Shown here: one piece after another, positions 15,359 to 43,010 of the stretch
Layout of the letters: every line of letters begins with the position of its first letter
How positions within the stretch are numbered: position 1 is the first letter of the stretch
Assembly (NCBI GenBank): GCA_024679065.1
Contig: JAGIQG010000013.1
Coordinates: 17,360,001-17,424,000, forward strand
Direction of reading: 5' to 3'
Length of the DNA stretch: 64,000 nucleotides
Origin: Sphyrna mokarran
Taxonomy: Eukaryota
The notes under the pieces: model-generated
The model's input: only the letters and a program-made list of their open reading frames with translations
Databases searched by the model: none
Told to the model about the DNA's origin: nothing
Translations under genes and position numbers: made by a program

Positions 15359-15565
15359 CAATAAGAAATTTCACAACACTAGGTTAAAGTTCAGCAGGTT
15401 TATTTGGTATCATGAGCTTTCGGACCACTGCTCCTTCATCAGATGAGTGATGAAGAGGGGCTCTCTGAAAGATCGTGATTCCTAATAAACTTGTTGAGCT
15501 TTAACCTGGTGTTGTGAAACTTCTTACACTGACCATCCTAATCCAACGCTGGCATCTTCATACCA
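15359..15565 (+). mobile_element. Short palindromic Penelope-type element (inverted pLTR plus tail) with hammerhead motif
   Basis: Imperfect inverted arms, tail ...tccaacgctggcatcttcatacca, TSD cggaggatt (15350-15358) / tggaggatt (15566-15574). Inserted in the RTE element. Confidence 0.8.
15410..15446 (-). ncRNA. Minimal type I hammerhead ribozyme motif
   Basis: tcat-CTGATGA-a-ggagc-agt-ggtcc-GAAA-gc-TC-atga. Confidence 0.65.
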
Positions 15566-16129
15566 TGGAGGATTTGGCATCAAGTCCATACATGGCAGAT
15601 AGCTGTACAGGCAGAGAGATATCAGTCTCATTGGAGTTATAGCTCAAAGTGGTGCTCTATCCAGGAGACCGTTTGCTTGTTCCTGTTCGTGAATATCATC
15701 GTACCTGCAGATTTTATAGGATTGGTGATGGGGTGACAGACTGCTCTTTTGATACCATCATATAGAGATTGGTATTGTCTTTAGCAGCTGTATTTCTTTG
15801 CATAGATTGATCAATATTTGTTCTCTCAGTACTTTCCTGTTTCCGGATAGCTGCCTTGGCTAACATCAGATTGTCGTGTGCGTTAGAATTAGGAACCAGG
15901 TTGTAAGCCAGCTAAATGCAGCTAGCTCTCTGCTTCAAGAGCAGTAATGATTTCTGCAAGGCAAGTCTTGAAACTATCTTCACTCCTGTATCTTCCATGG
16001 CCAGGCGATTTGCTGAAAATAGTGCAGACCAGGTTTGACAGCACAGCAACATTAGAATTCAGCTCCTCGCAGTCTTTGCTCACTTTGAAACAAAAAATAT
16101 TCCAAGATTTATTTAACTTCATCAGTCTT

Positions 16130-16430
16130 CTCAGAGAACAGCATTCTCTCTTCCATCTTCTTCCATTGGGAAAAAAGTACTAAAATCTGAGGTCATGTAC
16201 CAAGCAACTCAACAACGTCTTCTTCCCTGCTGCTATCAGAATTTTGAATGGACCTACATTGCATTAAGTTGATCTTTCTCTACACCCTAGCTGTGATTGT
16301 AACACTACACTCTGCACTGTCTCCTTTCCTGCTCAATGTACAGTATGCTTTATCTGTATTGTGCACAAGAAACAATACTTTTCACTCTATGTTAATACAT
16401 TTGACAATAATAAATCAAATCTTTATTAAA
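16130..16430 (+). mobile_element. LINE 3' end (Rex/L2-like); same family as 39000-39370
   Basis: Shared gatctttctctacaccctagct...gtaacactaca...aagaaacaatacttttcactctatg. Confidence 0.7.
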
Positions 16431-16560
16431 TAAAATAATCGATAGAGTAACAAGACACTTGAAGATGGTTGACATGGTTGATCTGAGGCTCTGAGAAGTA
16501 GGTTTCATTATATTTGTGAAAATCAGTCAGAATAATCAGAACTTGCATCATTTTTTGCAG

Positions 16561-16650
16561 CCCTTGCAGAAGAAAGATCAAACTGAGTATTCGGACCTTG
16601 CATTGAAGAACAGGAACCAGGACACAGAGGCTGGAATTAGAGCAAAACGG
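16561..16650 (+). CDS. CD247: CD247 exon 4 (rest of ITAM1)
   Basis: ttttttgcag|CCC...CGG|gtattt, 90 nt. PLQKKDQTEYSDLALKNRNQDTEAGIRAKR completes YQPL-x7-YSDL. Confidence 0.9.
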
Positions 16651-17115
16651 GTATTTTCTTTTAACCTTCCTTTCGCAAAGCAAAAATCAATTCTAGAGAA
16701 AGACAAAAGTACATTTTTTTTTAATAACCAGAATATTAAAAAAGCAATGTTGGATAAATATTGAGGTAACAATTTCTGGGATGCTTAGGATTATTTGCAA
16801 TTGTTATTTACACAAGAGTACAAACTGTATCAGGGAACTCTTCAGGCAGCCTCCTGGGAATCTCTAGGCTTGAGTCCCACTCCACGACATGGTTGGCCAT
16901 TAAGTATCAATTTGCAGGTCACTGAATACACATTAATGGTGGGTGGTAAGAATGGGAGAATATCCTGGTCAACCACGTGATGTAAAGAATTTTGGAGCCT
17001 CCGCCATTACCATCCATTGATCCAGACCACAACATGCATGTAAAATCGCATGTTGCTGTACTCCCTGAGTGAACTGTAGCACAGCAGCGCCACAAACCAT
17101 ACTCATGGGTATACG

Positions 17116-17313
17116 TGATGTAGAGATGCCACCATTGGACTGGGGTGAGCACAGTAAGAAGTCTCACAACATCAGGTTAAAATCCAATAGGTTTATTTGG
17201 TATCACCAGCTTTCCGAGCACTCACTCACCTGATGAAGGAGCAGCGCTTCGAAAGCTTGTGATTCCAAATAAACCTGTTAAACTTTAACCTGGTGTTGTG
17301 AGACTTCTCATTG
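17116..17313 (-). mobile_element. Short palindromic Penelope-type element, second copy (tail on the left)
   Basis: Tail tgatgtagagatgcc..ttggactggggt; arms cagtaagaagtctcacaac / gttgtgagacttct. Confidence 0.8.
17226..17262 (+). ncRNA. Minimal type I hammerhead ribozyme motif on the CD247 sense strand
   Basis: tcac-CTGATGA-a-ggagc-agc-gcttc-GAAA-gc-TT-gtga; stem I 4 bp, stem II 5 bp. Confidence 0.7.
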
Positions 17314-19119
17314 ATAGACAGAAGAGGAGAAGCATTCAAATTTCTATCTGTGAATCTTCTAAAATCTTGAGAAGGCATTTTAGGAATTGTGGTTACAGGA
17401 AGTTGTTTGGTGAACTGAAAAAAAATCAAATATGTCACAAATAATTCCAGTGCATCATTTCCATGACTTTCCAAATAATTTTTGTTCAATTTATTTTATG
17501 GGACGTGAGTGCCACTGGTTGGATCAGCATTTATTGCCCATTCCTAAGTGCCCTCCATTTTAGAGGGTGTTTGAGAATCAACCACATTTCTGTGAATCTA
17601 GACTAGATAAGGACCAGATTCCTTCCCTCTAAACTATGGTCATCATTAGACCTTTAATTCCAGATTTTTATTGAATTCAAATTTCACCATCTGCCAAGAT
17701 GGGATTTGAACCCTGGTCCCAAGATTTTGTTCTGGATCTCTGGGTTACTAGTTCACTGTCTCTTCTGTGCACAATTCGATGAATCATTGTCTCCTAGTAA
17801 GATAGTAAGTAAGAGTGCTCAGTTGTCAGCATAGGATAATCTGCAGATCTGATATATACCTTTGCAGACTAGGCCTTCTCAAATTTCCAGCTGCATTCTG
17901 AAACAAATCCTTCACAAGATTCCAGCAATGGAAGCAATAATCATCTCTGTAGCCCATCTGGAAGAGAAAAATCTGGTTCTTTGAGCTTCCAGATCTTGTT
18001 TTAGTCCATTAAGATCCTGTAACACATGAAAATTTCAGGCTAAGGTGCAAACACACTGAACACAAATGTCTTCAAATAAGAAATAATCACAGCTTTTGAC
18101 AGGGCCAAAGCAAAGGGGTTTTATTCCATAATAACAGAAAAAAAGATTCGTAATGATTCACAGGCAGTTCTTATTTGTACTGAGATATACTTTGCCTACA
18201 TAGGTAATATTTATCTATGAGCTCTAAGTGATTTTAGACCAGTTACAGCATCAGCTTTCAAAAAAATCTTCCTTCAATGAAAGGCACTGGGAAGCAACTG
18301 GGGACAAAAATCCTTGCCAAAGTTCAGAGGGAAAATAGACCAGAGTGAATGTGTGAGAGAGTGACAAGCAGTTGATGAATGCACTGACAGTTCTCGATGG
18401 AGGCCAGAGGAAGGGATCCAGATGAATCAGAGAAGCTGAACAGTCGTTATGGAGGCAAAGGCAGCAGGAGAAAAGTCCAACCTTTCTACTGAGCCTGCAT
18501 TCACTGAGGTGGGCTGAACAACGATGAAGCAGGGGATGGATTGTTCAAAATATCAGGTGGCAAGGTCAGAGGAGATTGTGAAGATTGGTAAGAGATGAAA
18601 TTGGAAATGGAGGCGAGGTCAGTTGTAAGTAAAGAACAACGGATCTAGAAATAGGATATCTGGCAAGATTTACTGACGTTCAAGATTTTTGTCACTGAAA
18701 GGTAGAAAAGCAGGTTTCTGCTCTGTGCCAGTAGAGATTAATGATAATACAGAAAATGCAAATTGAAGAATTTATTTCCTTTAATGTGTTCCAGTTGACA
18801 AGTCCAAAAAATACATCTGAAAATCAATTTTAAAATATTGGTACAGATGACAAACGGGGGACAGTCTCACAGTTTCTTACTTTCAGCCATCTTGTCAATT
18901 TCAATTCCTTTCACTAGTAAATTCTTGAGTATTTCAGTGTTGAACTGCATGCGTATATCAAGAGTGGAAAATTTATAAAAAACAGACATTAGACACAAAA
19001 AAAATCAATACTAGGTGGTGCACACCCGACCCCCCTATCTAACCACAAACCACAGTAAGGGGGGAATGTACGTCACGTACATCTGGGGAAGACAGGTAAC
19101 TATAGTAACAATGACATAG

Positions 19120-19560
19120 AACATAGAACACTATAGCACAAACAGGCCCTTTGGTCCACAAATTGCGCTGATCATATCCCTACCTACCAGGCCTATCTAT
19201 AACCCTCAATCCCATTAAATCCCATGTACTCATCCAGAAGTCTCTTAAAAGACCCCAGCGAGTTCGCCTCCACCACCACCAACGACAGCCGATTCCACTC
19301 ACTCACCACCCTTTGAGTAAAAAAATTACTCCTGACATCTCCTCTGTACCTACTCCCCAGCAACTTAAACCTGTGTCCCCTCGTAGCGACCATTTCAGCC
19401 CTGGGAAATAGCCTCTAAGAATCCACCTTATCAATACCTCAACATCTTGTAAACCTCTATCAGGTCATCTCTCATCCTTCGTCTCTCCAGGGAGAAAAGA
19501 CCGAGCTCCCTCAACCTATCCTCATAAGACATGCCTCCCAATCCAGGCAACATCCTTGTT
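19120..19560 (-). mobile_element. CR1 LINE 3' end
   Basis: TRMLPGLGGMSYEDRLRELGLFSLERRRMR, TRGHRFK, FFTQRVV; (acataga)n tail. Confidence 0.92.
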
Positions 19561-19971
19561 GACCTGGATTTTAACCTGAGGTCGACTGCTGGGGGCGTGT
19601 GTGCTGGAGGGATTGGCTTAGGAAGCAGTTTTACAGAAGGGGAAACCAAGAAGAATGGATTTCCTGAATATATCGCAGAACATCATTACTAGAATCCTTT
19701 AACTGAGATTCACGTTCGGAAGTAGCCAGATTGATAGGCCCGAAACCTTTCCAGCAGAAAGTCTCCTGCACAGGGCTGAAGAGCAATGGTTGCATTGGGC
19801 AGGCCTGATTGTGGGCAGGGGGGAGGGAGATATGATGGTTTTGATGGTCTTATTGGGAGGGCACAGTGCACACAAATGGTGGGGACTGGGGAAGAGTATT
19901 GGATTAATTTATTATGCCTGAAAGAAACGCTACTGCTCTTCTTGACCCAAAGCAAGGCAATGAAGTCACTT

Positions 19972-20200
19972 ACAGTTTATTTATTAGTCAGGCTTATATT
20001 AACACTGCAATCAAATTATTGTGAAATTTCCCCAGTTGCCACACTCCCGTGCCCGTTCAGGTCAATGCACCTAACCAGCACGTCTATCAGAATGTGGGAT
20101 GTAGCTGGAGCACCCACAGGAAACTACGCAGACAGTGACCCAAGCCGGGAATCGAACCCGCTCCCTGGCACTATGAGGCAGCAGTTTTAACCATTGTGCC
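19972..20200 (-). mobile_element. V-SINE
   Basis: Same family as 5128-5477. Confidence 0.8.
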
Positions 20201-20534
20201 AGAGTGCTGCCCCCGGATTCAGTCCCTCTCACCTTATTTGAGCTTCTGAGATTCCTGAAGCCTGGGAAACCTATCAGTCTTTGATAGATTGATTGGTAAA
20301 GGCACATCGCTTCATTATAATACTTAAATTATCACCTGATTCCTGTGAGTGGATTGGTCGCTCGCCTGAACGTTGGCTATTCCAATTCCTGTTCTAGATT
20401 TTACTTTTTATAAAAGTAAAAGGATTATGCTGTCCCAATGCTATAAAATAGTCTATTTTTACCTACAGCAGTCCTTTAACCCAAAGCATTCCTCACCATG
20501 TCTCATGAAGGAGAGAAGAAAAATATTTTTTTCA

Positions 20535-20945
20535 TAAGAACTAGGAGCAGGAGTGGTCATCTGGTCCCTCGAGCCTGCTCCGCCATTCAATAAGATCATG
20601 GCTGATCTTTTTGTAGACTCAGCTCCACTTACCCACCCGCTCACAATAACCCTTAACTCCTTTACTGTTCAAAAATCTATCTTTGTGTTAAAAAATTTCA
20701 ACAAGATAGCCTCACTGGGGAGAGAATTCCACAGATTCACAGTCCTCTGGGTGAAGAAGTTCCTCCTCAACTCAGTCCTAAACCTGTTTCCCCCCCCCCC
20801 GCCCCTTATGATAGCACTACGTCCCCTTGTTCTAGCTTCACCTGCCAGTGGAAACAACTTCCCTGCTTTTATCTTATCCAATCCCTTCATAATCTTTTAT
20901 GTTTCTCTAAGATCCATCCTCCTTCTAAATTCCAAGAAGTGCAGT
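20535..20945 (-). mobile_element. CR1 LINE 3' end
   Basis: RRNFFTQRTVNLWNSLP. Confidence 0.9.
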
Positions 20946-21596
20946 CTGAGTTTCAAGTCAGCTTGAGTAGAAATGAATGTAATTTGAAGGTGTGAAAAGT
21001 TACAGCTAAAGTTGAGGACAACATCAGTTAAACAGGAAGCGAACAACAAGCACCATGTTCTCTTTCATTAATCATGAATGATCTGAAATGTTAAACACTT
21101 GATTGTGACTCACTTTGACTTCTGAATCAATGCAACATATTGGCCGATTGCCCTTAATTATAGGAAAGAGGCGGCTGCCGTTGTTAGTCCTTTGTGAGCT
21201 GCAAGGAGCCAAAAGGGCATCCTGATGAAGTTCACAGCAGTAAGGCAAGCCAATATCGGACTGTCCTAGTTGGCAGTGATGTAAAAGCAGGAATTGGTTA
21301 TTAATGCAGAGGTGGATCTTAAAATGAGACAAAATTACAGGCTTAACTTTGCTGGGTACGTTTTGGTTCTATCACCCCTACGTGCACACTACAACCATCT
21401 CTAACCAAAAATTGCACATTACAATCCTAATAATCCTGCGTGCACATTCGAAGGGACCTGCTATCGGAAAGTTGCAAGTACTATAGTACCTCTTATGGTA
21501 GCCATGGAGTCAACAATGTCATTTGCTGCATGTATTGTATCAACTTTGTAAAACATTGCTGATAAATATATAACATTTTGTTTTTTTTTAAATCAG

Positions 21597-21638
21597 AACC
21601 AAAGGAAAGATTCTGCTAATCCTAATGACACCTATTCC
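21597..21638 (+). CDS. CD247: CD247 exon 5 (start of ITAM2)
   Basis: T-rich tract then aatcag|AAC...TCC|gtaagt, 42 nt. NQRKDSANPNDTYS (human QRRKNPQEGLYN). Confidence 0.9.
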
Positions 21639-21894
21639 GTAAGTAGTTTATGTTCTGGGAAATTACTATGCATGCTGCAGAATTTATTGCCCATATAGCC
21701 CTTTCATCAGTGTATCTTTACCTCTCAGTTAAGCGATATTAATAATAGCACACACACTTTGAACTATTAGTATTTAGCTGGCACTAAGTTGAATATCCGC
21801 CATGGAATTTGACTGGCTTGAAATGACCATGTTCTGCTGAATTGTGAATAACATGAGAAGCAGCAGAAGCTGCTTGCTAGAAATAGACCAAAGG

Positions 21895-22410
21895 ACCATA
21901 AGAATTAGGCCACCCGGCCCATCGAGTCTGCGCCACCATTCAATCATGGCTGAGTATTTTTCTCATCCCCATTCTCCTGCCTTTACCCCATAACCCTTGA
22001 TCCCCTTATTAATCAAGAACCTATCCTCTCCACTCAATGACCTGGCCTCCACAGCCTTCTGTGGCAAAAAAATTCCACAGATTTTGAAGAAATTCCTCCT
22101 CATCTTTGTTTCAAAGGATCGTCCTTTTAGCCTGAGGTTGTACCCCCTGTTTCTAGTTTTTCCTACTAGTGGAAATATCCTCTCCACATCCACTCTATAC
22201 AGGCCTTGCAGTATCTTGTAAGTTTCAGTAAGATCCCTCCTCATTCTTTTAAACTTCAACGAATACAGACGCAGAGTCCTCAACTGTTCCTCATATGTCA
22301 AGCTCTTCATTCCAGGGATCATTCTTGTGAACCTCCTCTGGATCCTTTCCAAGGCCAGCAGATCCTCCCTTAGATACGAGGCCCAAAACTGCTCACAATA
22401 CTCCAAATGG
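21895..22410 (-). mobile_element. CR1 LINE 3' end
   Basis: HLEYCEQFW...LERIQRRFTRMIPGMKSLTYEE. Confidence 0.92.
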
Positions 22411-22944
22411 TTTAAATGTAAGCCCAAGTAGTGGGAGATATGTGCAGGATGTGACCAAACAGAATATGTTTCAATTCTGATATAAATAAGTACAAAATAT
22501 TTTGCAAGTTGTCGAATTTAGTTCAAATCTCATTCCGAGTACTATGGAATGTAATAGAGGCTGGGAATTCTGGAAGTGCGGTGAATGTTGGTCCTATTGA
22601 TTTGAATTTTTATTCTGCTTTCTGGCTGGCATCCAACTACATTGAGAGGTTGGCTGGCCTAGCAGGTGGGAAGGCATCAGGTGGTAGGCTATAACTGCTG
22701 AAGGGAGAAGTGATCGTAATGGGGAATTAGGGTTCAAATGTGGTTTGGGAGGTTAATCACTGGGCAGGAAGCAGGTGAGCTTGGGGATGTCTTCCTGCTC
22801 TACATTCAGTGTTTATCTCTGATGGAACTCATCCTCATCTCTGTTTAACTACAGGGTTTTCGGAGTCCTGTGAAACCCACTCTACAGACATTAATGTTAA
22901 AATTTGAAACCTGCAGTCTTATTAGCATATTCAGATGTCATTGA

Positions 22945-23400
22945 GGAACAGTTGAGGACTTCGGATCTGTACTTATTGGAGTTTAGAAGGATGGAGGTGG
23001 GGGGAGGTGCGGGATCTTACTGAAACTTACAAGATGTTGCGAGGGCCTGGATAGAGTGGACGTGGAGAGGGTGTTTCCACTAGTAGGAAAAACTAGAACC
23101 ACAGCGCACAATCTCAGACTAAAGGGATAATCCTTTAAAACAGTGATGAGGAGGAATTTCTTCAGCCAGAGACTGGTGAATCTATGGAACTCTTTGCCAC
23201 AAAAAGCTGTGGAGGCCAGGTCATTGAGTGTCTTTAAGACAGAGATAGATAGGTTCTTGATTAATAAGGGGATCAGAGGTTATGAGGAAAAGTTAGGAGA
23301 ATGGGCAATGAGAGAAAAAAAATCAACCATGATTGAATGAATCAACCATGAGCAAACTCGATGGGCTAAGGGGCCTAATTCTGCTCCTATATCTTAAGGT
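22945..23400 (+). mobile_element. CR1 LINE 3' end, same subfamily as 21895-22410, inverted
   Basis: RRNFFSQRLVNLWNSLPQKAVEARSLS..DRFLINKGI. Confidence 0.92.
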
Positions 23401-23799
23401 TGTAGATAGTGCGAGCTTCTTGTGATCTGAATCCTTTGCCAATGAAACTGCAAGTGGGCTAATCGAGGCAGGATTGGATTGGGTAAATCTTTTAAATTTT
23501 AATCCATCTGCTCTGCTCCAAAAACCCAGTTAGCCCGAATGATGGTAACACAATTCCCCATCAGCTTTTAAGACAATCAGCTGTGCAAGTCATCCACTAG
23601 GTGTCACAGATGAGTACAGCATATACCAGTGAATGTCTACATTGTAATTTTTTTTATTACACATGAGATTTGTGTAAATTTGTGTAATAACAAGCAAAAC
23701 CAACTTGTGCTTGTTTTATGCATCCCTTAATGACTGCCTTTTAAAACTTCTTTCATGGGATGTGGGTGTTGCTGACTAGGCTAGTAGTTCTATTTATTG

Positions 23800-24405
23800 G
23801 CCAAACAGGGGGCTTGAGTTTAAGAGCCAAGGGATTATGCTCCAACTATACTGGACATTGGTGAGACCACATTTGGAATACTGTGTTCCATTCTGGTTAC
23901 CTCACTATAAGAAGAATGTGGAAGCATTGGACAGAGTGCAGAGGAGATTCACCAGGATGCTGCCTGGTTTGGAGGGTAGGTCTTATGAAGAAAGGTTAAG
24001 GGAGCTGGGGCTTTTCTCTTTGGAGTGGAGGAGGATGAGAAGCGATTTAATAGAGGTTTATAAGATGATGAGAGCGATTGATAGAGTGGACGTACAAAGA
24101 TTATTTCCTTGGGTGGATGCAGCTGTTACTAGAGGGCATAACTATAAGGTTTATGGTGGGAGATATGGGAGGGATGTCCGGGGTAGATTCTTCACTTAGA
24201 GTGGTTGGGGCATGGAATGGATTGCCTGCTATGATAGTGGAGTCAGACACTTTAGGAACCTTCAAGCGGTTATTGGATAGGCACATGCAGCACTCCAGAA
24301 TTATAAGAAGGGGATAGCTTGATCTTGGGATTGGACATAGTTCACACAACATTGAGGGCCGAAGGGTCTGCACTGTGCTGTAATATTCTATGTTTCTATG
24401 TCTAT
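23800..24405 (+). mobile_element. CR1 LINE 3' end nested in another LINE 3' end (23750-24630)
   Basis: LVRPHLEYCVPFWLPHYKKNVEALDRVQRRFTRMLPGL; (ttctatgt)n tail. Confidence 0.92.
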
Positions 24406-24689
24406 GTTTGCATGCTGATTTAATTGCCCTTACGAAAGTGGTGGTGAGCCACCTTCTTGAATTACTGCAGTTCACAGGTACACACATAGTGTTAATAGGA
24501 AGGGAGTTCTAAGATTTTCACCCAATGTCAGTGAAGGAATGGCTTTACAGCTCAAGTCAGGATGGTGTGTAGCTTGGAGGGGAACTTCCACATGGCAGTG
24601 TCCCAATGCGTCTGCTGCCCTTGTCCTTCAAGGTAGAACTGCGTTGATTTGTAATTTAACGAAATGTTTAAAACTTATTTTGTTCACAG

Positions 24690-24749
24690 AAACTGAATCC
24701 CAAGAACAAAAGTGAACCTTATGGTGAACTGAAACCAACTCAGCAGCAG
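24690..24749 (+). CDS. CD247: CD247 exon 6 (rest of ITAM2)
   Basis: ttttgttcacag|AAA...CAG|gtacag, 60 nt. KLNPKNKSEPYGELKPTQQQ completes YSKL-x8-YGEL. Confidence 0.9.
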
Positions 24750-25204
24750 GTACAGTGAACATACATTGATTCATGCATAGTGATGATGGTAACTTCCTAT
24801 AAGTAAATTATAAATGGTACTTCCACTTGCACTCAGGATTTGTTCAACAGTGCTCCATGGTAAAAGCTACTTAACCATGCCGAATCCTGGATTTCTATCA
24901 ATGCCTTTTGTACATATGTGAGAAAATAAATAAGTTTCTATCAAAGTATAAGAACTTCAGGAGCTAAGAAGTTATTATAGTGAAAAGAAGATAGTTTTAG
25001 TTTATTCAGTTTATCTCACCAACTGAATAAATATCACACATATGAATGGTCTAAATCTCCAGTACAAATGACATAGAGATCACTGTCTCCAATGTAGATA
25101 GTGTAAATTTTGTATACCACTTCATTATGTATGCCACTATTAATTTTTCTCAGTCACTGCACGTTAGCAGATCTTTCAAATCTAGGAAATTCCAGATAAA
25201 AGAT

Positions 25205-25610
25205 CACAGAATCCCTACAATGCAGAAAAGGCCATTTGGCCCATTGAATCTGCACCTGACAGAGCATCTTATCCAAGCTCTCTCCTCTGTCTTTTCCATC
25301 TAAACATTGCATGTTATTCTTTTTCAGATAACAGTCTATTTTCATTTTGATTGCTTTGAATCTACCACAAATTTCATATGGCTAATCCATCTAATCAACA
25401 CATCTTGGAACACTAAGAGGCAATTTAGCATGGCTAACCCACCTAACCTGCACATCTTTGGACTGTGGGAGGAAACCAGAGCATCTGGAAAAAAAACCCA
25501 TGCAGACACAAGGAGAATGTGCAGATTCCACACAGACAGTGATCAGAGTCCGGAATTAAACCTGGATCCCTGAAGCTGTGAGGCAGCAGTGCTAACCACG
25601 TTGCTGCCCC
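25205..25610 (-). mobile_element. HE1-like V-SINE with CR1-derived tail
   Basis: tRNA-like head at ~25550-25608, V core, tail cacagaatccctacaatgcagaaaaggccatttggccc. Confidence 0.8.
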
Positions 25611-25824
25611 AAACAGGCTGTGATTAACTAGCATATTAAAACCTGAAAAACAGCATTGAGCAGAACTATCAAGACCAGGGCCACAAATTATGTCTTTATG
25701 CACCAATAATTCTCAGCATACTATTTGCTTTGTGTCACTGAAGAAAGGACTTATATTATTAATAGGATGCTTTCAATATCACTGTGGATGCTGGAATAGA
25801 GGATGAGAGAAATTGCAACTTAAA

Positions 25825-26165
25825 ATGTTGAGAGGTATAGATCGAGTGGATAGTCAGAGGCTTTTTCCCATGGTTGAAATGATTACCAAAAGATGACACA
25901 GGTTTAGGATGCTGGGGAATAGGTACAGAGGAGATGTCAGGGATAAGATTTTCACTCAGAATGGTGGTGTGTGGAATAGGCTGCCGGCAATGGTGGTGGA
26001 GGTGGATTCGAGAGAGTCTTTTGAGAGACATTTAGATAAACACATGGAACTTAGTAAGATAGAGGGTTACAGGGAAGCCTAGTAATCTCTAAAATAGGGA
26101 CATGTTTGGCACAACTTTGTGGGCCGAAGGACCTGTATTGTGCTGTACTCTTTCTATGTTTCTAA
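25825..26165 (+). mobile_element. CR1 LINE 3' end
   Basis: gacacaggttta..gctgggga.taggtacagaggagatgtcagg; ttctatgtttcta tail. Confidence 0.88.
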
Positions 26166-26629
26166 AAGTTTGCATGCAGGCACGGTGTGGGCTAAGAAAT
26201 AAGAATATAGAATAAAAAACAGAAAGAAAAGGGAAGAAAAGTGTGGTGGATCCAGAGCAATCAAAATGAAAATAGACTGTTATCTGAAAAGGAATAATAT
26301 GTAATGTTTAGAGGGAGAACATGAGGGAATGGCACTATATGAATTATTCATTGAAAAGGCTGATGTAGACATTGTGGGCTGAATGGCCTTCTGCACTGAT
26401 ACTGTTCTGTGAAAAACATGAAGGGTAAATTATCCAAGGACGTTTTCTGTGCCACAGTTTGATTTTCTGATACATTTCATACCGTGCAATGCGTCACATG
26501 TAAGCAAACGCTTTGGACAAGCTGTCCTTAAATTTGTTCACGTGAAATTTAGTACAGAGATTTAGCCATGAAATTGATAAATATGTACTTTGGAAATAAA
26601 CCGAATTGTATTTTTTTTTTCCTGAACAG

Positions 26630-32530: not shown

Positions 32531-32649
32531 GTGTTTTTCAGAGTTGTGCACTGGTATTTTCTGCCACTCATGGTCTCTTTGGCCAAGTTTTGTAGTTGCC
32601 CATATATTCAATACATGAATTACTTAGTTACTTAGCGCATGCGTGAGTC

Positions 32650-33140: not shown

Positions 33141-34999
33141 GTCAGACAGGTCTTTTTCAGTTGGTATAGAAATGATGGGCTGGAAGGCAGCCTTCGACGC
33201 TTTAGACTTCAATTATTACAATTGTGACATTAAGGATCAAAATTAGTTTACTAATCCAGCTTTAGTTTTTTGCTTCAGGATAACATTTCCATAATAAATA
33301 ACTGACTCAACTACAGCTACCACTAATTACTTTAATGCTCAGTTGTAGACTTATTTTCAGAAAATAAAGAACTAGTGGTTTTTAAAGCAGCTTCCTTGAT
33401 TTACTAATAATTGCAGCAATCAGACCATGTCAATCGTATTCTTAGCACTGTGTTTTCAATACTCAGTAAAAAGATCTTTGAAAAGCCATATGTCCATTAA
33501 GAATTAAAAGACAAAAAAGGCAGAATAACATGTTTATTGTTTGGAAATGGACAATCTGAACATCTATAAATGAACAAAACATTTTCATTCTTAGGAAACA
33601 TAACATCCCATCTAATTGCTACAATTTGAACAAGAACTCTGGGATGCTTTTAGTTAACTTATTTTAAATGCAGGCCTAACTGCTGTGAGGTATGATTCAT
33701 TTCTTGCTTTACTTTGCAATTCCTTAAAGGAAACTTTAATCATTGTTAATTTCACAGTTCTATGTATTTAAGGTGTTTTATCTGTAATGTCTGTCAATTT
33801 TTTTGTATTAAAAAGAGTAGTTATCAAGATTGATTTGAATATTAATAATCCTTTGATTCTTTAATCCAAAGGACAGTTTCACCTAGAAGATCCTTTTTAG
33901 TGAAGCTCTACTGTTATTGCAATTAGTTGGCATAATTACTTCAAAATCATTGCAAGTTTTAGAAGGTTAGAATAATGCTTCTTGATAAATTGACTGTGAG
34001 CTGGGAAAGCATTGTATCCAGAATGTTTATTATAAGTAGATGTATTTACACCAAATGATAAATTGTAAAACAGACATGATTTAAACAATATATTCCTGAC
34101 ATCTTTGAATAATCAGGATTATAGTCTGCCTCTAAACAACTTCCTGCAAGAGTGAGAAGGGAAACAGGCAATTGACAAAAATAATCCTTCCTTGTAAAGC
34201 AGCCACCAAAAACTGACCAGTTTGTTTGCTCCATCAAGTGTCCTACAACAGCATAAAATATAACAGGATGAGCACTAGGCCTTTACAGCATTATTAAATG
34301 GGTACAAGTGAAGAGGACACTTAATAGATACCTCAGCTACACTGTGTTAACATTATTACAATTTTGCAACTCTACATTCAAGGCTTTTTTCCTGCCTGGT
34401 AACTACAAAGCTGAATAAGAAATATTTTTGTTCAGAGCTTTCAACTCACTGAGGAAGCTCTGGCCCTATTCACATCTGACAACCTGCTCTGAAAACTCTG
34501 TTCACTTTTTGACAGCTGTGACAAATTTCAGCACAGCAGCTGAGACCAGCTGCAGTATTTTAAAGCAAACCATGACATCCTGGATCAAATAACCCATAAC
34601 ATTCACAAAAAATAGTCCTACCTCCCAATGCTAACAGATAGTTCAGTTAAAAAAATTTCAGTGTCTGAATGCGGACCTGCCTTTTCAACTAACTAATCAG
34701 TCCTTCCTTGGGCCATATCCGATCCTTCTATAAAACAAGTTCTGTTGGAATCTATTAATTTTTGTGATATAACAGCCAACCTTCAATGACAGAGGTCATA
34801 ATAAAGAAAATGCTTTATAATGGAGTTTACACATGCGGTTCATTCATCGGGGTGACTATTTGTTGTCATTATTATCAATCCCTTGAAGCAAGAATGATAT
34901 CTGCTAGACTTCATAACTTGTGCATCCTCAGGTGACTCTGCAGTCACAGTTTGTTGGGCAGAGAGGACAGAAGTTATCATGAGAAAAGGAGGGAATCTC

Positions 35000-37900
35000 A
35001 TGCCAGGATTATGCTGTCTCTCAATCCACTTTTGTTGCTGTGTTTATGTAGCCACTTTGTAAGTGTGTTGTGGCTTTTTTGATGAGGCTCTGCAACATAG
35101 TATGGTTTACAGTAAGATCCTTGTATGTACCAATGGCAATTTGGTCACTTTCCAATGAGAGCTTTCATCCTTAAAATACTTTCTTCATCCTCTTTGAGGT
35201 GATGTTCCATCTTGAAGTTGTGAAGAGGTTCTGCTTTGGAAGCAGATCATTTGGCATGTAGACAAAGTTTTTGGACCAGCAGCAAAAATTTTGCATGCTC
35301 AATCTTGCAATTTTGGAGGAATTGGCTTTGATAAGGATGCTGGATTAATTTGCCTGCTCTGCTGCTTGCTTTTCCACTGGTAGAAATTCTCCCATGCCTG
35401 GAGCTGCCTTTGGCAGGGGACCTAGTTGTCACTGTCACATAGAAGATATAGAAGAGTGATGGCAGCAACACTGTAAGCTCAAGTCTTTGTCCTGTTATGC
35501 AGATCTCTGTTGTTAAATTTCAAATTGGACAATTTGTGGAAAACTGCACTCCTACAGCCAATTCTGTTCTGGATCTCCACTTCAATGGTAACCTTTTGAT
35601 AAAGGTAGTTGCTGAGATATGGGAAGTGTTCAATAACTTCTAAAGTTACTCCATCAATAACAATAGATATTTGTCTGGGAAAAACAGATGGAGAATTTTG
35701 GTTTGGTTGATTCGAGTGAGAAAGCAACTCTTTTATACAGGGAGTTACAGAGGCTGGGGGTAGATTGTCTGAATGTCACTTACAATGTTAAGCAGAGGTT
35801 GGCATATAAGCTGTGGATATGCTGAAGAATAACTTTAGTCTTGGTCACAAATGGGTTCAATGTCAAAGTTGAAGAGGAGAGTTGGAGCTATTACATAGCT
35901 TTGTTTTCCACTCATCCCAATACAAGGGGGTCTCAGTCCCTAGTCCACTGCATGTTTGTGTCATAATTCAGGAATCATAGGATAGTAACAAACTTTGCTG
36001 GAAATCTAAGTTTCTGGAGGACTTTCCAAAGTACTTTATGGGTGATACTGTCAAAGGCCTCTATAGATCAACAAAGGCATTGCAGACACAGACATTCCAG
36101 ATAATTTTCTCGGTTTTGTCAAAAAAAGATGGTTCCCTTATGGCTGGAAATCCTACTGAGTTTCTGGAAGGATGTCTTTGTTGATGGAAAGAGGTGATTC
36201 TGTAAGATTTATGTGACAGAAAGAATACACCACTAATAGTTTCCACAAATCATCATTTTTCTTGAAGAATTAAATAATGATAGCATTGCAGAAGTGATGA
36301 GAAATGTCTCTTCTTTCCAAATTCTTGTAAAAAGATCTGAGAGTTTAAACAAGACCACCAGCTTTATAGCTTCCTGCAGAAATGTTGTCTGCACCATATG
36401 CCTTGTTGTTTACCTGTTACTTAGTCTTCTGTATCATATTAAGTGTTGGCAATATATCCAAACTTAATCTCCCATGTTGTTGAGGTGTTGTGTTGGTGAT
36501 TTTGTCAAATACCATTGCCTCCCAATTGAGAAATTTCTGACAGTGCTCATTCCAACTGTCTTAGATGGTTGCATCATCTTTGGGAAAATAACTTCTCCAA
36601 TCCAGAATTCTAAAATGCAGAAGCACTAGTTGCCCAGAAGTTTTTTTTTATATACTTTGCAACTCCAGATTCTAAAACTCATGATGCTGCAACTATGACC
36701 TTGCATTTTTCTGCACTAGTTGGGTTCCAATGTTAAGGGTCATTTGCCTGCCTAACTCTCCCAGATTCCACTAGAAAGGTAAGATTGAAACTTGAGTGTC
36801 TTGTTATTTTTATTTATACAGTTTAATTGTGAAGCATATGAATTGTGGAGCCCTCCTCGAAAGAATAATGATTTTCTTCATGGCACGAGCAAATACCTGT
36901 CTACCATGGCAAAGGTCATTGCGATAACATAATCAGGGTTTAGTTTGAAGGTCAACTAAATTGGATATCCTAAAGAATTGGGCACATTAAAATCAAACAC
37001 AGTCAAACCTTGGGTAGGCCAGACTTGACTAAGTTCAAATATACAGACACAGAAACACGTCTGGAGCTGTTCCATCAAAGACCTTGCACTGTACTGAGAC
37101 CCAGCTGGAGATCATCGCAATCTATTGAAATGCATTGGCCTATTGTTAAAAGCCCAGATTGGGCCAGACTTCCTGTCACCTAAAATTCCTGCAATTACCT
37201 TATGTGGAATAGGTTTTATGTAAGCAACACCATGGAGCTGGACACCTGAGGGAGAGCCCCAATGTCCAGTCAGACAGACATCAAGAAACCCACTGGGTAT
37301 TGGGACCCCCTTCCCCTCAATGATTGGAAACCAGATTTGTTTCTGGAAAGGTGAGGAGCGCATCTCAGACACACTGGCAGCAAGAATTGACAAGGGAGGT
37401 GACTTTGGCCATATGGAGGACTGACCGCAGAAGGAAGAAGCTGCCATCAAGACTCACCTTTATGATGACAGACCAGAGGGACTCAGAATCGGGCCTGCAG
37501 TTTAACCAAACCGTCTTTGCGGGTAGTATAATTGAATCTAGGTTATCTTCTTGTTTTGCGTGTGTTATTGAAGGTTTAATAGTACTATTATTATTAAACT
37601 TATTGAACCCTGTTCTTTGTTCATCTTGCAAATGGTGCACTGGGATAAAACTTTTAAGTAAACTGGTCAAAACTATCTGGTACAACATCATCTTATGTTG
37701 TTTTATAGAATTTAGTGGTCAAAAAATTAAACCTTAGGCGGTTGAGTCAAAACTATTTCCTATAATAGGTAGGCACAGTTCTTTAGAAAGTATTTGGATT
37801 TTTCCCCAACAGTATCTAACAGAGATAAAGCTTTCTGAATTATGACATTTATAAATGTTTAATAACTGCTTATTTGGTAGACCCTAGTAATTGAGCGTTT

Positions 37901-38960
37901 GTAGGTAGGATACCCTCTGTGATAGAGTGCCAATGTATTCTCTTTCATGACCTGCTCCTATTAAAGCATAAGTAATTGGCATGCTGTCAATCGTTAAGTG
38001 CAATGTTTTGGAAACATGGAAGATATGGTATTTGGATACATAAAACAATTTTTGTTAATGCTTTATAACGTTTTGAAGTTTTTGTCAATTGTTTTATGTC
38101 AAATAGAGATTTGTATCTGTGTTGGGCACTAAAAACCTATTCTATAATCGAGAAATGCCTTGGGCCTGAATGTTCTGAACTGGAGGGTGTTACAGTGGTA
38201 TTGCCATCTTCAGCTTGGGAGTAGGAACCATTGGTTTTTGATTCAAAGATGGTCTTGGTGGCTTGGAAGAAGCCACACATGTTGTGCTAGTCTGTGTAGT
38301 GTTGGATTTCATTGGCTTTTACCTATTATTTAATTCTTGATGACACATATTCTCTGATCTTGTTTTTTGAGTAATAAGCACTCTTTTCATTTCTGCAATT
38401 ATGTAGAGATTTTGACAGAGAATGAAACTTTAGCATCTCTGTTCAAGAATTTAACATATTTATCATTCTCATCAAACCAGTCTTGATGCTTGCGAAGTTA
38501 AAACCCGAGCATCTGTGTATATGTCTCTTGGATTCCAGATGTAACCTTGCCCCAGAGCCTTCCATACTGGCATCATTAAAGTTTGTGAGAGGGTCAGATG
38601 AGCAAAAGGATGCAGATGGAACTGTACACGTTTTCCATCCTGGAAAAAATAGATAGATGTTAAATCTTCTCCTGAATTTTTTTGAAGAGTTTTAATGTTT
38701 GGGTATTATGCATATGCTCAAGGTGGAGAGTACAAGTCTTCAGTCTGTCCAATAATCATTTGTGCCCTGCATAGCTTGGGTGATGCGCACATTCTTCTAA
38801 TCCTGGCCACGGACAACGAATTAGTCCAGATGTTTCCAACGCTTGGATTGGAATTTTTCCAAATTTTATAGCATCAATCTTTTTGATTAACCCATGTGTT
38901 TCTGCTAGTGAGCCCATGATCAGTGCACTTGAGAGCAGACGTTTGCATTTGATTTCCACA
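35000..38960 (-). mobile_element. Long decayed RTE-clade LINE (endonuclease and RT), interrupted at ~36830-37780
   Basis: LEVIEHFPYLSNYL (YLG region), AFVDL*.AFD (~36050-36090), YRITS, endonuclease-like IQALET (~38830). Confidence 0.7.
36828..37777. mobile_element. Possible solo LTR or unknown insertion inside the RTE element
   Basis: ~950-bp non-RTE block beginning TGT and ending CA, with a T-rich 3' part. No clear TSD seen. Confidence 0.35.
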
Positions 38961-38999
38961 TTCCCCTTTACCCGATGGTGCCCTTCCAGGCAACATAGT

Positions 39000-39370
39000 T
39001 GCCTTCAAATCTAGCACTATTTTTTTTCTCCATCCATTGATTTTGTTTACACTTCCCACTGCCCCAGCAAAGCAGCCAGCATAACTAAGGACTCTACACG
39101 CCCTGGACATTCCCTCTTCCATCTTCCTCTATTGGGAGAAAGAAACAAAAGTCTAAGGTCATATACCAACGACTTGAGAACGGCTTCTTTCTTGCTGCCA
39201 TGAGATTTTTCACCTGAAGTTGATCTTTCTCTATACCCTAGCTATGACTGTAACACTACATTCTGCACTCTCGTTTCCTTCTCTACAAATAGTATGCTTT
39301 GTTTATAAAGTCCACAAGAAACAATACTTTTCACTCTATGCTAATACATGTGACATTAATGTATCAAGTA
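39000..39370 (+). mobile_element. LINE 3' end (Rex/L2-like)
   Basis: Paralogous to 16130-16430. Confidence 0.7.
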
Positions 39371-41116
39371 ATAAAAAATTCCAGTCAGATGAATTTGCCT
39401 TGCATTGGGATTGCCAGCAACACAAAATCCAGATGTACATACGAGTTCTTTATTTTAGCCAGTAGAATGGACTGAGTGATGATTGTGGACTATTGATAGC
39501 CATTAAGTCAAAGCCTTAAGAGGCATAAAACTATTCATTATTTCAATTGGAGGCACTGTGACTATATCTGTGATTTTAATTTTGATGGCAAACCGAAATG
39601 ATGATTGTCCTCTGGTTTCCCTCTTCCTAAAAAAAGTGTAACTATTGCTTTCCTCTCCAAACTGATCTTCAGCAGGGAGTCAGATTTTACTCAGATCGAG
39701 CACCAGAAAAAGTTTTCCTTTCAGGACATTCGTAACTTGTTTGTCCATAACCATGCACACATTCCAGGTACCAAAATTCATGCATTTTTCACTAGTGTGC
39801 TTTTAACTGTGAGGATGGTGATTCCAGTTTCCCAAATCTCGGATACATTACTCAAGTGAGGGGTTTGAAAATGTACCTCAAACTGCTGCAGGGGAGTTAC
39901 TTTTGCCCCAACTCTAAGGACTAAGCAACTATCAGGAATCCACTGCTGACAGGCAGGTTTGTGGCTAGAGCTGCAGGCTCATTGTTGTGCTTCTGATGCC
40001 ACTGGTGAATCATATGACTTTCCAGTGTCCCTGGCAGGACTGTGTTTGTCATATTTTAACATAAGATAGTCAATGTGCACAATCTTGAAAGATTGGAAAT
40101 ATTTACCCAATGGCATGGCTCACCATGATTGCAGAATGTCAAACTGCACTGTAATATTCATCAGCCTTCATACACATGTACATGTAAGAATAATTTATTT
40201 GCCTATTTTGCTGTTAAGGACTTGTGAAAATGTGTTTTAATTTAGGTATGTCTCTCTAGATCTGCCCAGATCAGTGTGGCAGGTTCACCTCATGCAGTTT
40301 TTAGTTGGAATAGTCTTGGTGGAAAGACAAGCTACGAACAGCACCATAAGCAGCCTGCCTCCCTGGGATTCAAGGATGAGTGCTATGTTATTAGTTGGAA
40401 TCTAGTACTAGCTTAGGTTTTTTTGATTAGTTTATTGCATAGCTTTTCAATTGGGACAGTACAAAATAAAAAAGTTAATAAAATCTCAGCCGACAAATTG
40501 CTTATGGTTAACTTCTACAATTGTCAACCTAAAATAATTTTTGAATGATGGAAAAAGGAGAAATTTATAAGGACTGCAATGAAATTTATAAAAAATATAT
40601 GAAATTCGCATCACAATTTATTGCAGTGCAACTGAAAAACAATTTATTGTATTGAGATAAAGGTGAAATAGCAGAACAACTTTCAACAGTTATTCTTTGA
40701 AACATAACCTCATGAGAGATTATTGCTTACAGGGAGAAATTACTTCGAGACTGTCTGCATGTGAACACATGTATGCAGTTGGAGAGAATTCAGCTAATTT
40801 TAATAATTTACACACACTCCGTTGCAAAGGAGGTTTGCTGAACATAATGGCTTGCTACTTAAAATTAAAGACAAATAGCCCACAGACAGACAAAAACCTA
40901 GAACAACTTCGTTTAATCACAATAGATTTCAACATTTCCACACACTGTGGAGAGGTGGGAGAAGGAGAAGATGTGTGTGCATTAATAGTGGCTCAGCTGG
41001 TAGCGCTCACATGCAAAAGTCAACAAGATTCTGGGTTCAAGTCCCACTTCAGGGCTTAAACACAAAAATCAAGGCTGATAATGCAGTGCAGCATTGAGGA
41101 TTTGTTGCATTTTCAG

Positions 41117-41620
41117 GGAAAGGATATACTGGTACCGGAGGGGGTGCAGAGGAGATTCACTAGGTTGGTTCCAGAGAAGTTTGGCTTAGGAGGAGACACC
41201 CAGTAGACTAGGGCTATACTCATTGCAATTCAGAAGAATGAGGGGAGATCTTATAGAAACATATAAGATTATGAAGGGAATACGTAAAACAGAAGCAGGG
41301 AACTTGTTTCCACTGGCAAGTGAAACTAGAACTAGGAGGCATGACCTCAAAATAAGGGGAAGCAGATTTAGGACTGAGTAGAGGAGGAACTTCTTTATAC
41401 AAAGGGTTGTGAATCTGTGGAATTCCCTGCCCAATGAAGCAGTTCAAGCTACCTCATTAAATGCTTTTAAAGCAAGGATAGATACATTTTTGAACAGTAG
41501 TGGAATTAAGAGTTACGTTGAGCATGCGGTTAAGTGGAGCTGAGTCCACGAAAAGATCAGTCATGATCTTATTGAATGGCAGAACAGGGTCGAGGGATCA
41601 GATGGCCTACTCCTGTTCCA
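41117..41620 (+). mobile_element. CR1 LINE 3' end
   Basis: gtgcagaggagattcactagg...gtgaatctgtggaattccctgccc; same subfamily as 20535-20945. Confidence 0.9.
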
Positions 41621-41666
41621 GCAAACTGAGGTTCTTTCTGTCTCCTCAGATGGATGTAAAAGATCT

Positions 41667-41940
41667 AAAGTTTATTTATTAGTCACAAGTAGGCTTACAT
41701 TAACACTGCAATTAAATTACTGTGAAAATCCTCTATTTGCCACATTCCGGCACCTGTGCGGGTACACAGAGGGAAAACTCAGCACGGCCAATTTATCTCT
41801 GGACTGTGGGAGGAAACTGGAATACCCAGAGGAAACCCACGAAGACATAGGCAGAATGTGCAAACACCATACAGCCCAAGCTGGGAATCAAACCTGGGTC
41901 CCCGATGCTGTGAAGCAGCAGTGCTAATCACTGTGCCACA
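41667..41940 (-). mobile_element. V-SINE
   Basis: Same family as 5128-5477. Confidence 0.85.
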
Positions 41941-42159
41941 TAATATGCTATTATTTCGAAGTAGGCAACTTATCCACCATGTCCTGGCCAATACTTATCC
42001 CACAATCAACGTCTCAAAAAATATGATCTGGTCATAATCATGTTGCTGCTTGTGGAAGTTTGCTGTGTACAAATTGGATGCTGTGTTTTCTACGTTACAC
42101 CAGTGATTGCTCTTCAAAAGTACTACACTGGACATCTCAAAGTGCTTTACAGCTAATGG

Positions 42160-42739
42160 TCGTGATTCTCAGTCATTGGTGAATCCAGTACATCAGTACC
42201 AAAGACAAGGTTGAATTTGCAACCAGCTTTAGCCAGAAGTGCTGAAGTTGACAATTGAGTTCAGCTTCTTCTGAGGTTCCCAGATTCACAGATGCCAGTC
42301 TTCAGCTAATTCATTCACGTGTTATCAAAAAATGGCTGATGGCCCTAGATACTGCTAAGACAATACTCCAGTAGTAACACTAATAAAAACTTGTAGTCCA
42401 GATGTAGCTGTGCTCCTAACCAAGCTGTTCCAGTTTACTTACAATACTGACATCTATCCGGCAATGTGGAAAATTGCCAAAGTATGTCTTGTCCACAAAA
42501 GAAAGGAAAAATCCAACCCAGTCAATTACTGTCCCAACTATCTTCTCTCAATCATCAGCAAAGTGAAGGAAGGGCTTAGTGGTAATGTTATCAAACGGCA
42601 TTTACTCAGCTGTAACCTGCTCATTGATCATCAGTTTGGGTTCCAACAAGGCCACTCAGTTCCCGACCTCATTACAGCCTTGGTTCAAACGTGAACAGGA
42701 GGTCAAAAGGTGAGGGAAGACTGACCGCCCTTGACATAT
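42160..42739 (+). mobile_element. LINE RT fragment
   Basis: YPAMWKIAKVCLVHKRKEKSNPVNYCPNYLLSIISKV...HQFGFQQGHS...LTALDI. Confidence 0.88.
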
Positions 42740-43010
42740 TCAGTAAGAATCTGGCAACACCAATTTTAAATCCAACCGATTTATTTGATAGTAAATCTGC
42801 GAGCTTTCAACTTTCGTCTTTGTCAGGCATTTGCCTGATGAAGACAAAAGTCGCGAGCTTTCGACTTTTGTCTTCATCAGGCAAATGCCTGACAAAGACG
42901 AAAGTTGAAAGCTCGCAGATTTACTATCAAATAAATCGGTTGGATTTAAAATTGGTGTTGCCAGATTCTTACTGAGTTTACCCCAGTCCAACGCCGGCAT
43001 CGCTACATCA
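42740..43010 (+). mobile_element. Short Penelope-type element: perfect 236-bp palindrome plus 35-nt tail, 14-bp TSD
   Basis: Arms 42740-42853 and 42862-42975 are exact reverse complements. Tail 42976-43010. TSD cgcccttgacatat (42726-42739) / cgcccttgatatat (43011-43024). Confidence 0.88.
42851..42884 (-). ncRNA. Minimal type I hammerhead ribozyme motif
   Basis: ttgc-CTGATGA-a-gac-aaaa-gtc-GAAA-gc-TC-gcga. Confidence 0.65.

Follow-up and report, generated by a model that had tools for sequence, protein, structure and literature searches.

Three short mirror-image inserts in a 64-kb window of the Sphyrna mokarran genome (the whole stretch of DNA analysed, 64,000 nucleotides) are very probably separate, extremely 5'-truncated, head-to-head insertions of endonuclease-bearing Penelope-like elements (PLEs). 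They match the pseudo-LTR (pLTR) and tail end of such elements. Because the inserts correspond to the cut-short ends of a protein-coding PLE with thousands of copies, they are likely inert PLE stubs. The family is ordinary, comprising truncated ends of a known retrotransposon class with a layout already in print. A sequence-only reading of this DNA had noted the three inserts (E1, E2, and E3), and we found each where it was placed, with arms in inverted orientation, a tail on one side only, and a single intact hammerhead core. Their parts are as follows.

15349..15358, unstranded: E1 left target-site duplication (TSD), 9-10 bp, single C/T difference from the right copy
15359..15449, minus strand: E1 inverted pLTR arm of family A, lacking the tail, with its 5' end 7 nt before the hammerhead core
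15414..15442, minus strand: E1 minimal type I hammerhead, intact core, G-G mismatch in stem II
15448..15526, plus strand: E1 direct pLTR arm, truncated at core +1, degenerate hammerhead, 2-nt overlap with the inverted arm
15527..15565, plus strand: E1 unpaired tail, its end corresponding to the ORF ATG in ORF-bearing copies
15565..15574, unstranded: E1 right TSD
17102..17115, unstranded: E2 possible decayed TSD, uncertain, 10/14 identical to 17307-17320
17116..17151, minus strand: E2 unpaired tail
17152..17222, minus strand: E2 direct pLTR arm of family A, cut within stem II at +13
17223..17313, plus strand: E2 inverted pLTR arm, lacking the tail, with its 5' end 7 nt before the core
17230..17258, plus strand: E2 minimal type I hammerhead, intact core and stems
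42726..42739, unstranded: E3 left TSD, 14 bp, one mismatch
42740..42829, minus strand: E3 outer arm of family B in inverted orientation, mirroring 42886-42975 exactly, with G8A and C11.1U in both
42827..42853, plus strand: E3 inner sense segment, hammerhead 5' half, exact mirror of 42862-42888
42854..42888, minus strand: E3 inner antisense segment with the sole intact E3 core (42855-42880), CpG states unlike the outer arms
42886..42975, plus strand: E3 direct pLTR arm, with its tail 89% identical to the ORF-linked L094 end and 92% to L249, G8A hammerhead
42976..43010, plus strand: E3 unpaired tail, 35 nt
43011..43024, unstranded: E3 right TSD

The arms are 84% identical over 63 nt in E1 (15359-15449 and 15448-15526) and 83% identical over 71 nt in E2 (17152-17222 and 17243-17313). 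For E3, the reported arm pair is present (42740-42853 and 42862-42975, 100% identity over 114 nt), but the insert consists of four segments (antisense, sense, antisense, sense) rather than two arms. TSDs had been described for two inserts, and both were recovered (14 bp in E3 and 9-10 bp in E1, each with one mismatch); the possible 14-bp TSD of E2 is an addition. No ORF remnant was found within the window itself.

The proposed link to PLEs holds, as the same kind of arm, hammerhead, and tail flanks ORFs for reverse transcriptase (RT) and a GIY-YIG endonuclease. ORF-bearing PLEs with the shared pLTR were sought and found, and the arm plus tail is their pLTR. One copy, L081, carries a single 892-amino-acid ORF that matches RVT_1 (E = 2e-9) and, C-terminally, GIY-YIG (E = 3e-5). 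Its ATG begins at the tail end, and its 133-nt direct pLTRs are 94.7% identical. The endonuclease contains the DKG and CCHH motifs defined in PMC8557442, and a CX2-5CxxC linker (CHSNLCKTC) lies upstream of GIY-YIG in L081. Of 17 parsed copies, 8 keep the linker in frame, and in the others it is mutated or frameshifted. Neptune and Nematis are the candidate clades, with Neptune suggested by the linker and by the vertebrate distribution given in PMC4209133.

Of the 20 best GIY-YIG loci, 19 carried the E3-type arm, as did all 20 longer regions, which were picked for long frames or inverted pairs. Exact tails numbered 5,237 for subfamily B and 250 for subfamily A, with 0 for controls, and 389 tail-to-ORF-start junctions were detected at ≤2 mismatches. 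The upstream pLTR ended between +39 and -953 in 27/30 ORF-start copies. Long palindromes follow the same plan, such as L083, with 2,067-bp arms at 98.7% identity. The suggestion of two subfamilies was borne out: E1 and E2 belong to the older subfamily A and E3 to the younger subfamily B. A-type tails were joined to ORF remains in L152, L141, and L143, and identity between these loci and the arms of E1 and E2 is 78-87%. Such remains were linked in only 3 of 30 A-tail loci (within 1.5 kb), and no A element of full length turned up; both results count against the truncated-end explanation.

We also confirmed the hammerhead assignment. Intact CUGANGA...GAAAGCUH cores occur at 15414-15442 (-), 17230-17258 (+), and 42855-42880 (-), whereas simulation gives an expectation of 0.14 occurrences per window even for a relaxed form of this pattern. 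The core nucleotides, stems I and II, and the palindromic stem III of a minimal type I hammerhead are present. An Rfam scan at E ≤ 10 returned no hammerhead family and only weak microRNA-type hairpin matches. In all three inserts, the intact core is on the inverted, tail-less part, and the hammerhead of the tailed arm is truncated or dead (starting at +1 in E1 and +13 in E2, and carrying G8A and C11.1U in E3).

The claim that differing stem pairings are preserved stood in part. Stem covariation is real, but the stem II G-G mismatch of E1 departs from it. Among 200 arms, which come from related subfamilies and are not independent events, stem II pair 3 was paired in 95.0%, compared with 61.7% in shuffles; covariation was also seen in ORF-linked copies. 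The U-A at stem I pair 1 of E1, read earlier as covariation, was found in 0 of 200 other arms, so two chance mutations are the more likely origin. In E3, the 3' strand of stem I (gcga) spans the internal junction. CpG decay is evident in genomic copies, with G8A in 38/200 arms, and a G8A lineage appears to have been mobile. The predicted pairing of stems I and II was ≤0.001 in whole inserts, compared with 0.70-0.77 in the L081 5' pLTR; in this folding model, the palindromes keep the ribozyme shut. The hammerhead is probably inherited from active elements, where it was under selection; once in a stub, it decays and, by prediction, is sequestered.

We then surveyed copy lengths using 92 consecutive exact B tails from one stretch of contig C1 (30 of 90 loci were analyzed up to 1.5 kb). 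Six copies were too short for alignment, 45 measured 88-328 bp, and 41 measured 399-3,476 bp. Length in these tail-picked copies was continuous from <100 to 3,476 bp, without a gap. The lengths merge into ORF-bearing PLEs, which supports the second alternative of the sequence-only reading, extremely 5'-truncated PLE insertions. A terminal head-to-head inverted arm was present in 47 of the 92 copies, with a TSD in 33 of these 47, and its outer end lay 32-42 nt before the tail end in 29/33. Most two-armed copies had a TSD of 11-17 bp. A TSD was called in only 6/34 B copies lacking the inverted arm, which may reflect a detection limit or a second route.

Truncation points were counted by multi-reference comparison of arms. 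Arms truncated between 0 and -19 nt relative to the core numbered 13/62 (direct) and 11/24 (inverted) in B and 12/18 (direct) and 8/14 (inverted) in A; truncation at -100 to -199 accounted for 1/34. Short copies are thus over-represented and the stubs form a real size mode, which counts against the truncated-end explanation. Truncation points cluster just 5' of the hammerhead. A single transcription start was not supported as the cause of this cluster, as only 6/27 ORF-start copies end at -2 to -24. Read by eye, ends were scattered and did not peak sharply where the hammerhead would cleave.

The end positions lead us to infer double-ended priming. The GIY-YIG nuclease would cut the two target strands approximately 12-15 nt apart. 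One target 3' end would prime reverse transcription at the ATG, giving the tailed arm, and the other would prime 32-42 nt (about 35) upstream, giving the tail-less arm. Both cDNAs would often halt close to the hammerhead's 5' edge before being joined through short microhomology or filler.

Alternatively, the palindromes could arise by fold-back self-priming of one cDNA or antisense template rather than from both target ends, an explanation that we consider unlikely. Junction palindromes in Adineta were interpreted as self-priming in PMC3846280, and several junctions here are likewise perfect short palindromes. The stem-loop II haplotype is also identical or nearly so between arms in 44/45 pairs. 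However, the arms are truncated at different points, either can be the longer, and the constant position of the outer end, 32-42 nt before the tail end, is what a second start site would give. Moreover, the arms of four insertions (L091, L093, L183, and L095) match different subfamilies, which makes single-molecule fold-back impossible unless conversion followed. General arm-to-arm homogenization was rejected for short copies, whose arms decay independently, with 8 CpG pairs changed in the same direction and 9 in opposite directions. Long copies have an excess of same-direction CpG pairs (19 versus 3, ~5 expected).

The four segments of E3 need a further step if the inserts are truncated PLE ends. 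Its antisense-sense-antisense-sense layout is exactly what would result if double priming took place on RNA transcribed from an older stub, and the outer arms would then have one set of CpG mutations in common and the inner arms another. It is conceivable, though quite doubtful, that palindromic stubs are at times transcribed and that the Penelope enzyme copies them again, with E3 as such a granddaughter. At ≤3 mismatches, the only match to the E3 inner junction was E3 itself; the parent may be lost or absent from the assembly, so this search neither proves nor excludes second-generation copying. Contigs from the best DNA run, possibly the very data behind the assembly, cover both E3 borders but do not cross the palindrome, so they do not independently confirm the exact E3 center. 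The surrounding host sequence has motifs resembling those of a CR1/L2-type RT remnant; a Pfam search of it gave no match. If such re-copying occurs, the genome would preserve the beginnings of a non-autonomous PLE class that does not depend on the ribozyme. Insert ends and arms of mixed subfamily would be in vivo evidence of PLE priming from both target strands, and PLE integration would sometimes draw on two different RNAs.

The sequence-only reading favored a distinct retrozyme- or SINE-like non-autonomous family and named lengths that grade continuously into those of ORF-bearing PLEs as evidence against it. Such a gradation was found, so the headline reading is unsupported. In its SINE-style form, a fixed palindromic RNA of ~200-270 nt would be transcribed and copied whole in trans by the PLE protein, which is very improbable. 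The peak in size around 200 bp, most marked in family A, agrees with such a unit, as do the four segments of E3 and the trans action of Adineta pLTRs (PMC3846280). One junction recurs among matches picked for E3-likeness (L039, L041, L048, and L054). Against this, internal junctions vary from copy to copy, the truncation-point pairs of two-armed A copies all differ (19/19), lengths extend continuously to 3,476 bp, long ORF-containing palindromes have the same ends, and no parent of the E3 inner junction was found at ≤3 mismatches. The copies thus lack the fixed consensus, shared internal junction, and discrete length of a SINE-like unit, and this reading is largely refuted for the bulk of copies.

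Non-LTR retrozymes, in which head-to-tail hammerhead repeats are cut to monomers, circularized, and reinserted, share the type I hammerhead with palindromic stem III and are described in one cartilaginous fish as derived from PLE pLTRs (preprint, 10.64898/2026.07.22.740005), but this origin is scarcely credible here, given that all three inserts are head-to-head, that no array of at least three occurred in 120 tail-picked loci (two same-strand tails, 305-657 nt apart, in only 3/90 B loci), that ends are set by the tail and scattered truncation, and that the core is predicted to be sequestered.

The value of these copies is as a natural data set on how inverted pLTRs and a one-sided tail arise in PLEs, an open question. 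Thousands of young copies with readable TSDs can report start sites, cut stagger, and synthesis stops, and the same copies can tell whether an element with a dead hammerhead still transposes. Full-length copies like L081 offer a second PLE clade for the published in vitro system. In scans, the stubs can pass for new ribozyme RNAs or precursors of microRNAs; their annotation should be that of PLE ends.

Our literature searches found no paper describing the shark family and nothing relevant on twin priming in PLEs; "shark" has 0 occurrences in the main text of PMC4209133. A partial tandem with an inverted 5'-truncated copy and a one-sided 30-40 bp tail is a published layout of endonuclease-bearing (EN+) PLEs (PMC8557442; Adineta Pen2/Pen3, PMC3846280). 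The shark copies share with these complex insertions the head-to-head pLTRs, single-end tail, strong 5' truncation, TSD, pLTR hammerhead, and a parent with RT and C-terminal GIY-YIG. They differ in that approximately half of sampled copies fall in the shortest class, which consists of just two pLTR ends, and in the truncation cluster just 5' of the hammerhead. As in metazoan PLE minimal type I hammerheads (PMC4209133), there is a bulge after A9, a G10.1-C11.1 pair, and a palindromic 15.2-16.2, and there are many consensus families with compensatory changes, mostly dispersed from full elements. Metazoan retrozymes (PMC7229834; 10.64898/2026.07.22.740005) are similar in their type I hammerhead, non-coding nature, size, and PLE origin, but they form head-to-tail repeats yielding circular RNA, whereas the arms of the shark inserts pair head to head, with a tail and with junctions that vary. 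In vitro, the Poseidon element PAc of Anolis carolinensis (PMC11167929) has both target strands cut and extended from two start sites, and insertion does not need hammerhead cleavage. Two adjacent reverse-transcription starts define the tail in PAc and, on the mechanism proposed here, in the shark elements. The main PAc start lies 111-118 nt inside the ORF, whereas the shark tail ends at the ATG; the PAc hammerhead overlaps the start codon, whereas that of the shark lies ~120 nt upstream; and the shark protein has a CX4CxxC linker that Penelope/Poseidon lacks.

The three head-to-head elements reported by the sequence-only reading, E1 (15359-15565), E2 (17116-17313) and E3 (42740-43010), are present in the window, and each has one intact hammerhead core, as had been proposed. 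By repeat finding, their arms (copies of a Penelope-like element [PLE] pseudo-LTR, pLTR) are 84% identical over 63 nt in E1, 83% over 71 nt in E2 and 100% over 114 nt in E3. The inverted, tail-less part houses the intact core in all three; the core of the direct, tailed arm is cut or mutated. The loose hammerhead pattern has a chance expectation of 0.14 per simulated window, and no Rfam model matched E1-E3 at E ≤ 10. Both target site duplications (TSDs) claimed earlier were recovered with one mismatch each, at 14 bp for E3 and 9-10 bp for E1, and E2 has a possible, decayed TSD of 14 bp (10/14 identical).

Intact hammerhead cores (pattern search)
15414-15442, minus strand, E1
17230-17258, plus strand, E2
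42855-42880, minus strand, E3

Genome searches with E2 and E3 as queries returned 4,514 and 2,546 first-look candidates, respectively (40 scored for each). The family B tail (E3) occurs 5,237 times as an exact 31-nt match and the family A tail (E1 and E2) 250 times as an exact match, with 0 occurrences of either reversed control. Judged by divergence, family A copies are older (best matches 81-88% identical to E2), so the exact-tail count is too low for this family.

We screened this genome for GIY-YIG domains and scored 150 of 490 candidates. An E3-type arm was found in 19 of the 20 best loci; in 17 of these it shares the strand of the match and lies ~400-530 nt downstream of it. All 20 of the longer regions, selected for a long frame or an inverted pair, have such an arm as well. 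One locus is a full-length PLE.

Full-length PLE
L081:2004-5156 (G000:C1104:8285500-8288660), minus strand, with an open 892-aa ORF

It comprises a pLTR (hammerhead, arm, tail), an ATG directly at the tail end, the ORF with RVT_1 and GIY-YIG domains, a 3' UTR of ~220 nt and another pLTR. The closest named protein homologs are from the sharks Heptranchias, Scyliorhinus and Mustelus (79-86% identity). Its sequence would make it Neptune- or Nematis-type by the criteria of PMC8557442. In this copy, Ser replaces the second cysteine of the endonuclease Zn motif. The genome holds 389 tail-to-ORF junctions at ≤2 mismatches. The tailed arm of E3 is 89-92% identical to ORF-linked copies; for the arms of E1 and E2, identity to A-type copies attached to ORF remains (L152, L143, L141) is 78-87%. 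Family A yielded no full-length element.

Lengths were sampled on one contig (C1) from its first 92 exact B tails in consecutive order, chosen regardless of length; upstream sequence was limited to 1.5 kb in 30/90 loci. Copy lengths were 88-328 bp in 45 cases and 399-3,476 bp in 41; the other six could not be aligned because they were too short. A terminal inverted arm was present in 47 of the 92, with a TSD called in 33/47 (12-15 bp in 28), compared with 6/34 copies lacking this arm. The tail ended ≤3 nt from the ATG position in 39/39 TSD-defined copies, an upper limit partly built in by the search range (-6 to +3). At its outer end, the inverted arm stopped 32-42 nt short of the end of the tail in 29/33. 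Long palindromes, among them L083 (2,067 bp arms) and L096 (1,648 bp), contain ORF pieces in both arms and have the same two ends as short copies. In family A, 19 of 30 tail-picked loci are two-armed, with truncation-point pairs differing in 19/19 pairs. End positions, TSDs, independent truncation and continuity with ORF copies are directly observed. The PLE link drawn by the sequence-only reading holds, since the arms of E1-E3 match ORF-linked copies. Its distinct non-autonomous family does not: B lengths run on to ORF-bearing copies, the outcome named beforehand as refuting it, and these elements are not the fixed unit of a SINE-like family. Separately, four insertions (L178, L193, L196, L217) span ~45-70 nt, scarcely more than the tail, and L217 has two back-to-back tails before an ORF start.

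The ~200 bp size class noticed earlier is a real mode, produced by truncation clustering 0 to -19 nt from the core. Truncation is non-uniform: this interval took 13/62 direct B arms at risk (several subfamily references), 11/24 inverted B arms at risk (counted within 700 nt) and, with few A references, 12/18 direct and 8/14 inverted A arms; -100 to -199 took 1/34 direct B arms. The enzyme may pause or release near the hammerhead. A single transcript start was not supported as the source, as upstream pLTR ends of ORF-start copies are scattered from +39 to -953 (at -2 to -24 in 6/27). Also against a plain reading, the same junction is repeated among matches selected by similarity to E3.

The usual PLE layout is an inverted truncated copy plus tail (PMC8557442, PMC3846280). 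According to PMC11167929, an Anolis PLE protein cuts both strands and extends them, starting at two sites that define the tail. One arm would be primed from each target 3' end and the two cDNAs joined via microhomology or filler; junctions have an overlap or gap of -6 to +11 nt in 33/39 B cases. The main rival explanation of the inversion is self-priming, proposed in PMC3846280. Stem-loop II, CpG-normalized, is the same in both arms in 24/45 pairs and slightly different in 20/45 (random expectation of identity, 3.5%), which indicates that the arms come mostly from one source. At L091 (L091:2077-5037), the arms carry two different common haplotypes, and at L093 (L093:1849-5406), L183 and L095 they are in phase with different other copies. 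Such loci suggest that a minority of insertions drew on two RNA templates at once or underwent conversion afterwards. Long two-armed loci (e.g., L185, L088, L083, L084) show 19 same-direction CpG changes common to both arms versus 3 opposite (~5 expected), reflecting either source-RNA inheritance or patchy arm-to-arm conversion.

E3 contains a perfect 114-bp four-segment fold-back (42740-42975), the right two-thirds of which is a normal two-arm stub and the left part its mirror. The outer arms share exactly G8A and C11.1U; the inner segments share a distinct set of CpG changes. A later DNA-level template switch re-copying the left arm is slightly favored: the TSD has a mismatch and the arms none, short copies in general are not homogenized, and no parent copy of the junction was found genome-wide at ≤3 mismatches. 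A doubly primed transcript of an older stub is less favored. No available contig crosses the E3 center. The host sequence (42300-42739 and 43025-43160), without a Pfam match, resembles a decayed CR1/L2-type RT in its motifs.

Other repeats share the window. Three inverted-repeat pairs (82-121 nt, 86-94%, 0.8-1.3 kb apart) are unrelated to the PLE end; one holds LINE-like coding remains, and all are possibly inverted LINE insertions. A ~300 bp repeat is SINE-like by appearance.

Other repeats
12428-13952; 22085-23305; 25292-26319, inverted-repeat pairs
5140-5475; 13118-13397; 19990-20201; 25407-25616; 41682-41939; 63066-63211, ~300 bp SINE-like copies (appearance)

Of 259 anchored arms, 200 included the hammerhead motif and were used to score its conservation; the values overstate it, as the parser accepted no more than two mismatches per half. 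Pairing exceeded that in shuffles, which ignore relatedness, at stem II pair 3 (95.0% versus 61.7%), stem II pair 2 (94.5% versus 80.9%) and stem I pair 2 (87% versus 75.7%). The proposed covariation stands as pairing, but it consists of subfamily differences also found in ORF-linked copies, and so shows selection on active elements and not stubs. The U-A reading of E1 stem I pair 1 recurs in 0 of 200 other arms. Genomic copies are decaying: the core is intact in 102/200 arms, with G8A in 38 and G12A in 35, and at the C7-G8 CpG of 178 B arms core-breaking CA (39) is at least as common as harmless TG (20). G8A occurs in 10/19 arms of one stem-loop II haplotype and in both arms of 5/45 insertions (2.2 expected), L191, L094, L183 and L181 among the loci with both arms affected. 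This hints, weakly, at mobility of a source whose hammerhead was dead, with which the in vitro result in PMC11167929 agrees. Predicted stem probabilities are ≤0.001 inside E1-E3, because the antisense arm comes first on each strand, and 0.70-0.77 in the 5' pLTR of L081.

E1-E3 behave as EN+ PLE insertions throughout the tests of that class. The retrozyme reading fails on the tandem arrangement, as defined in PMC7229834 and 10.64898/2026.07.22.740005, with arrays of ≥3 absent from 120 tail-picked loci. Our literature search found no description of this shark PLE family. Minimal hammerheads, dispersed and covarying, have already been described in fish PLEs, as PMC4209133 reports.
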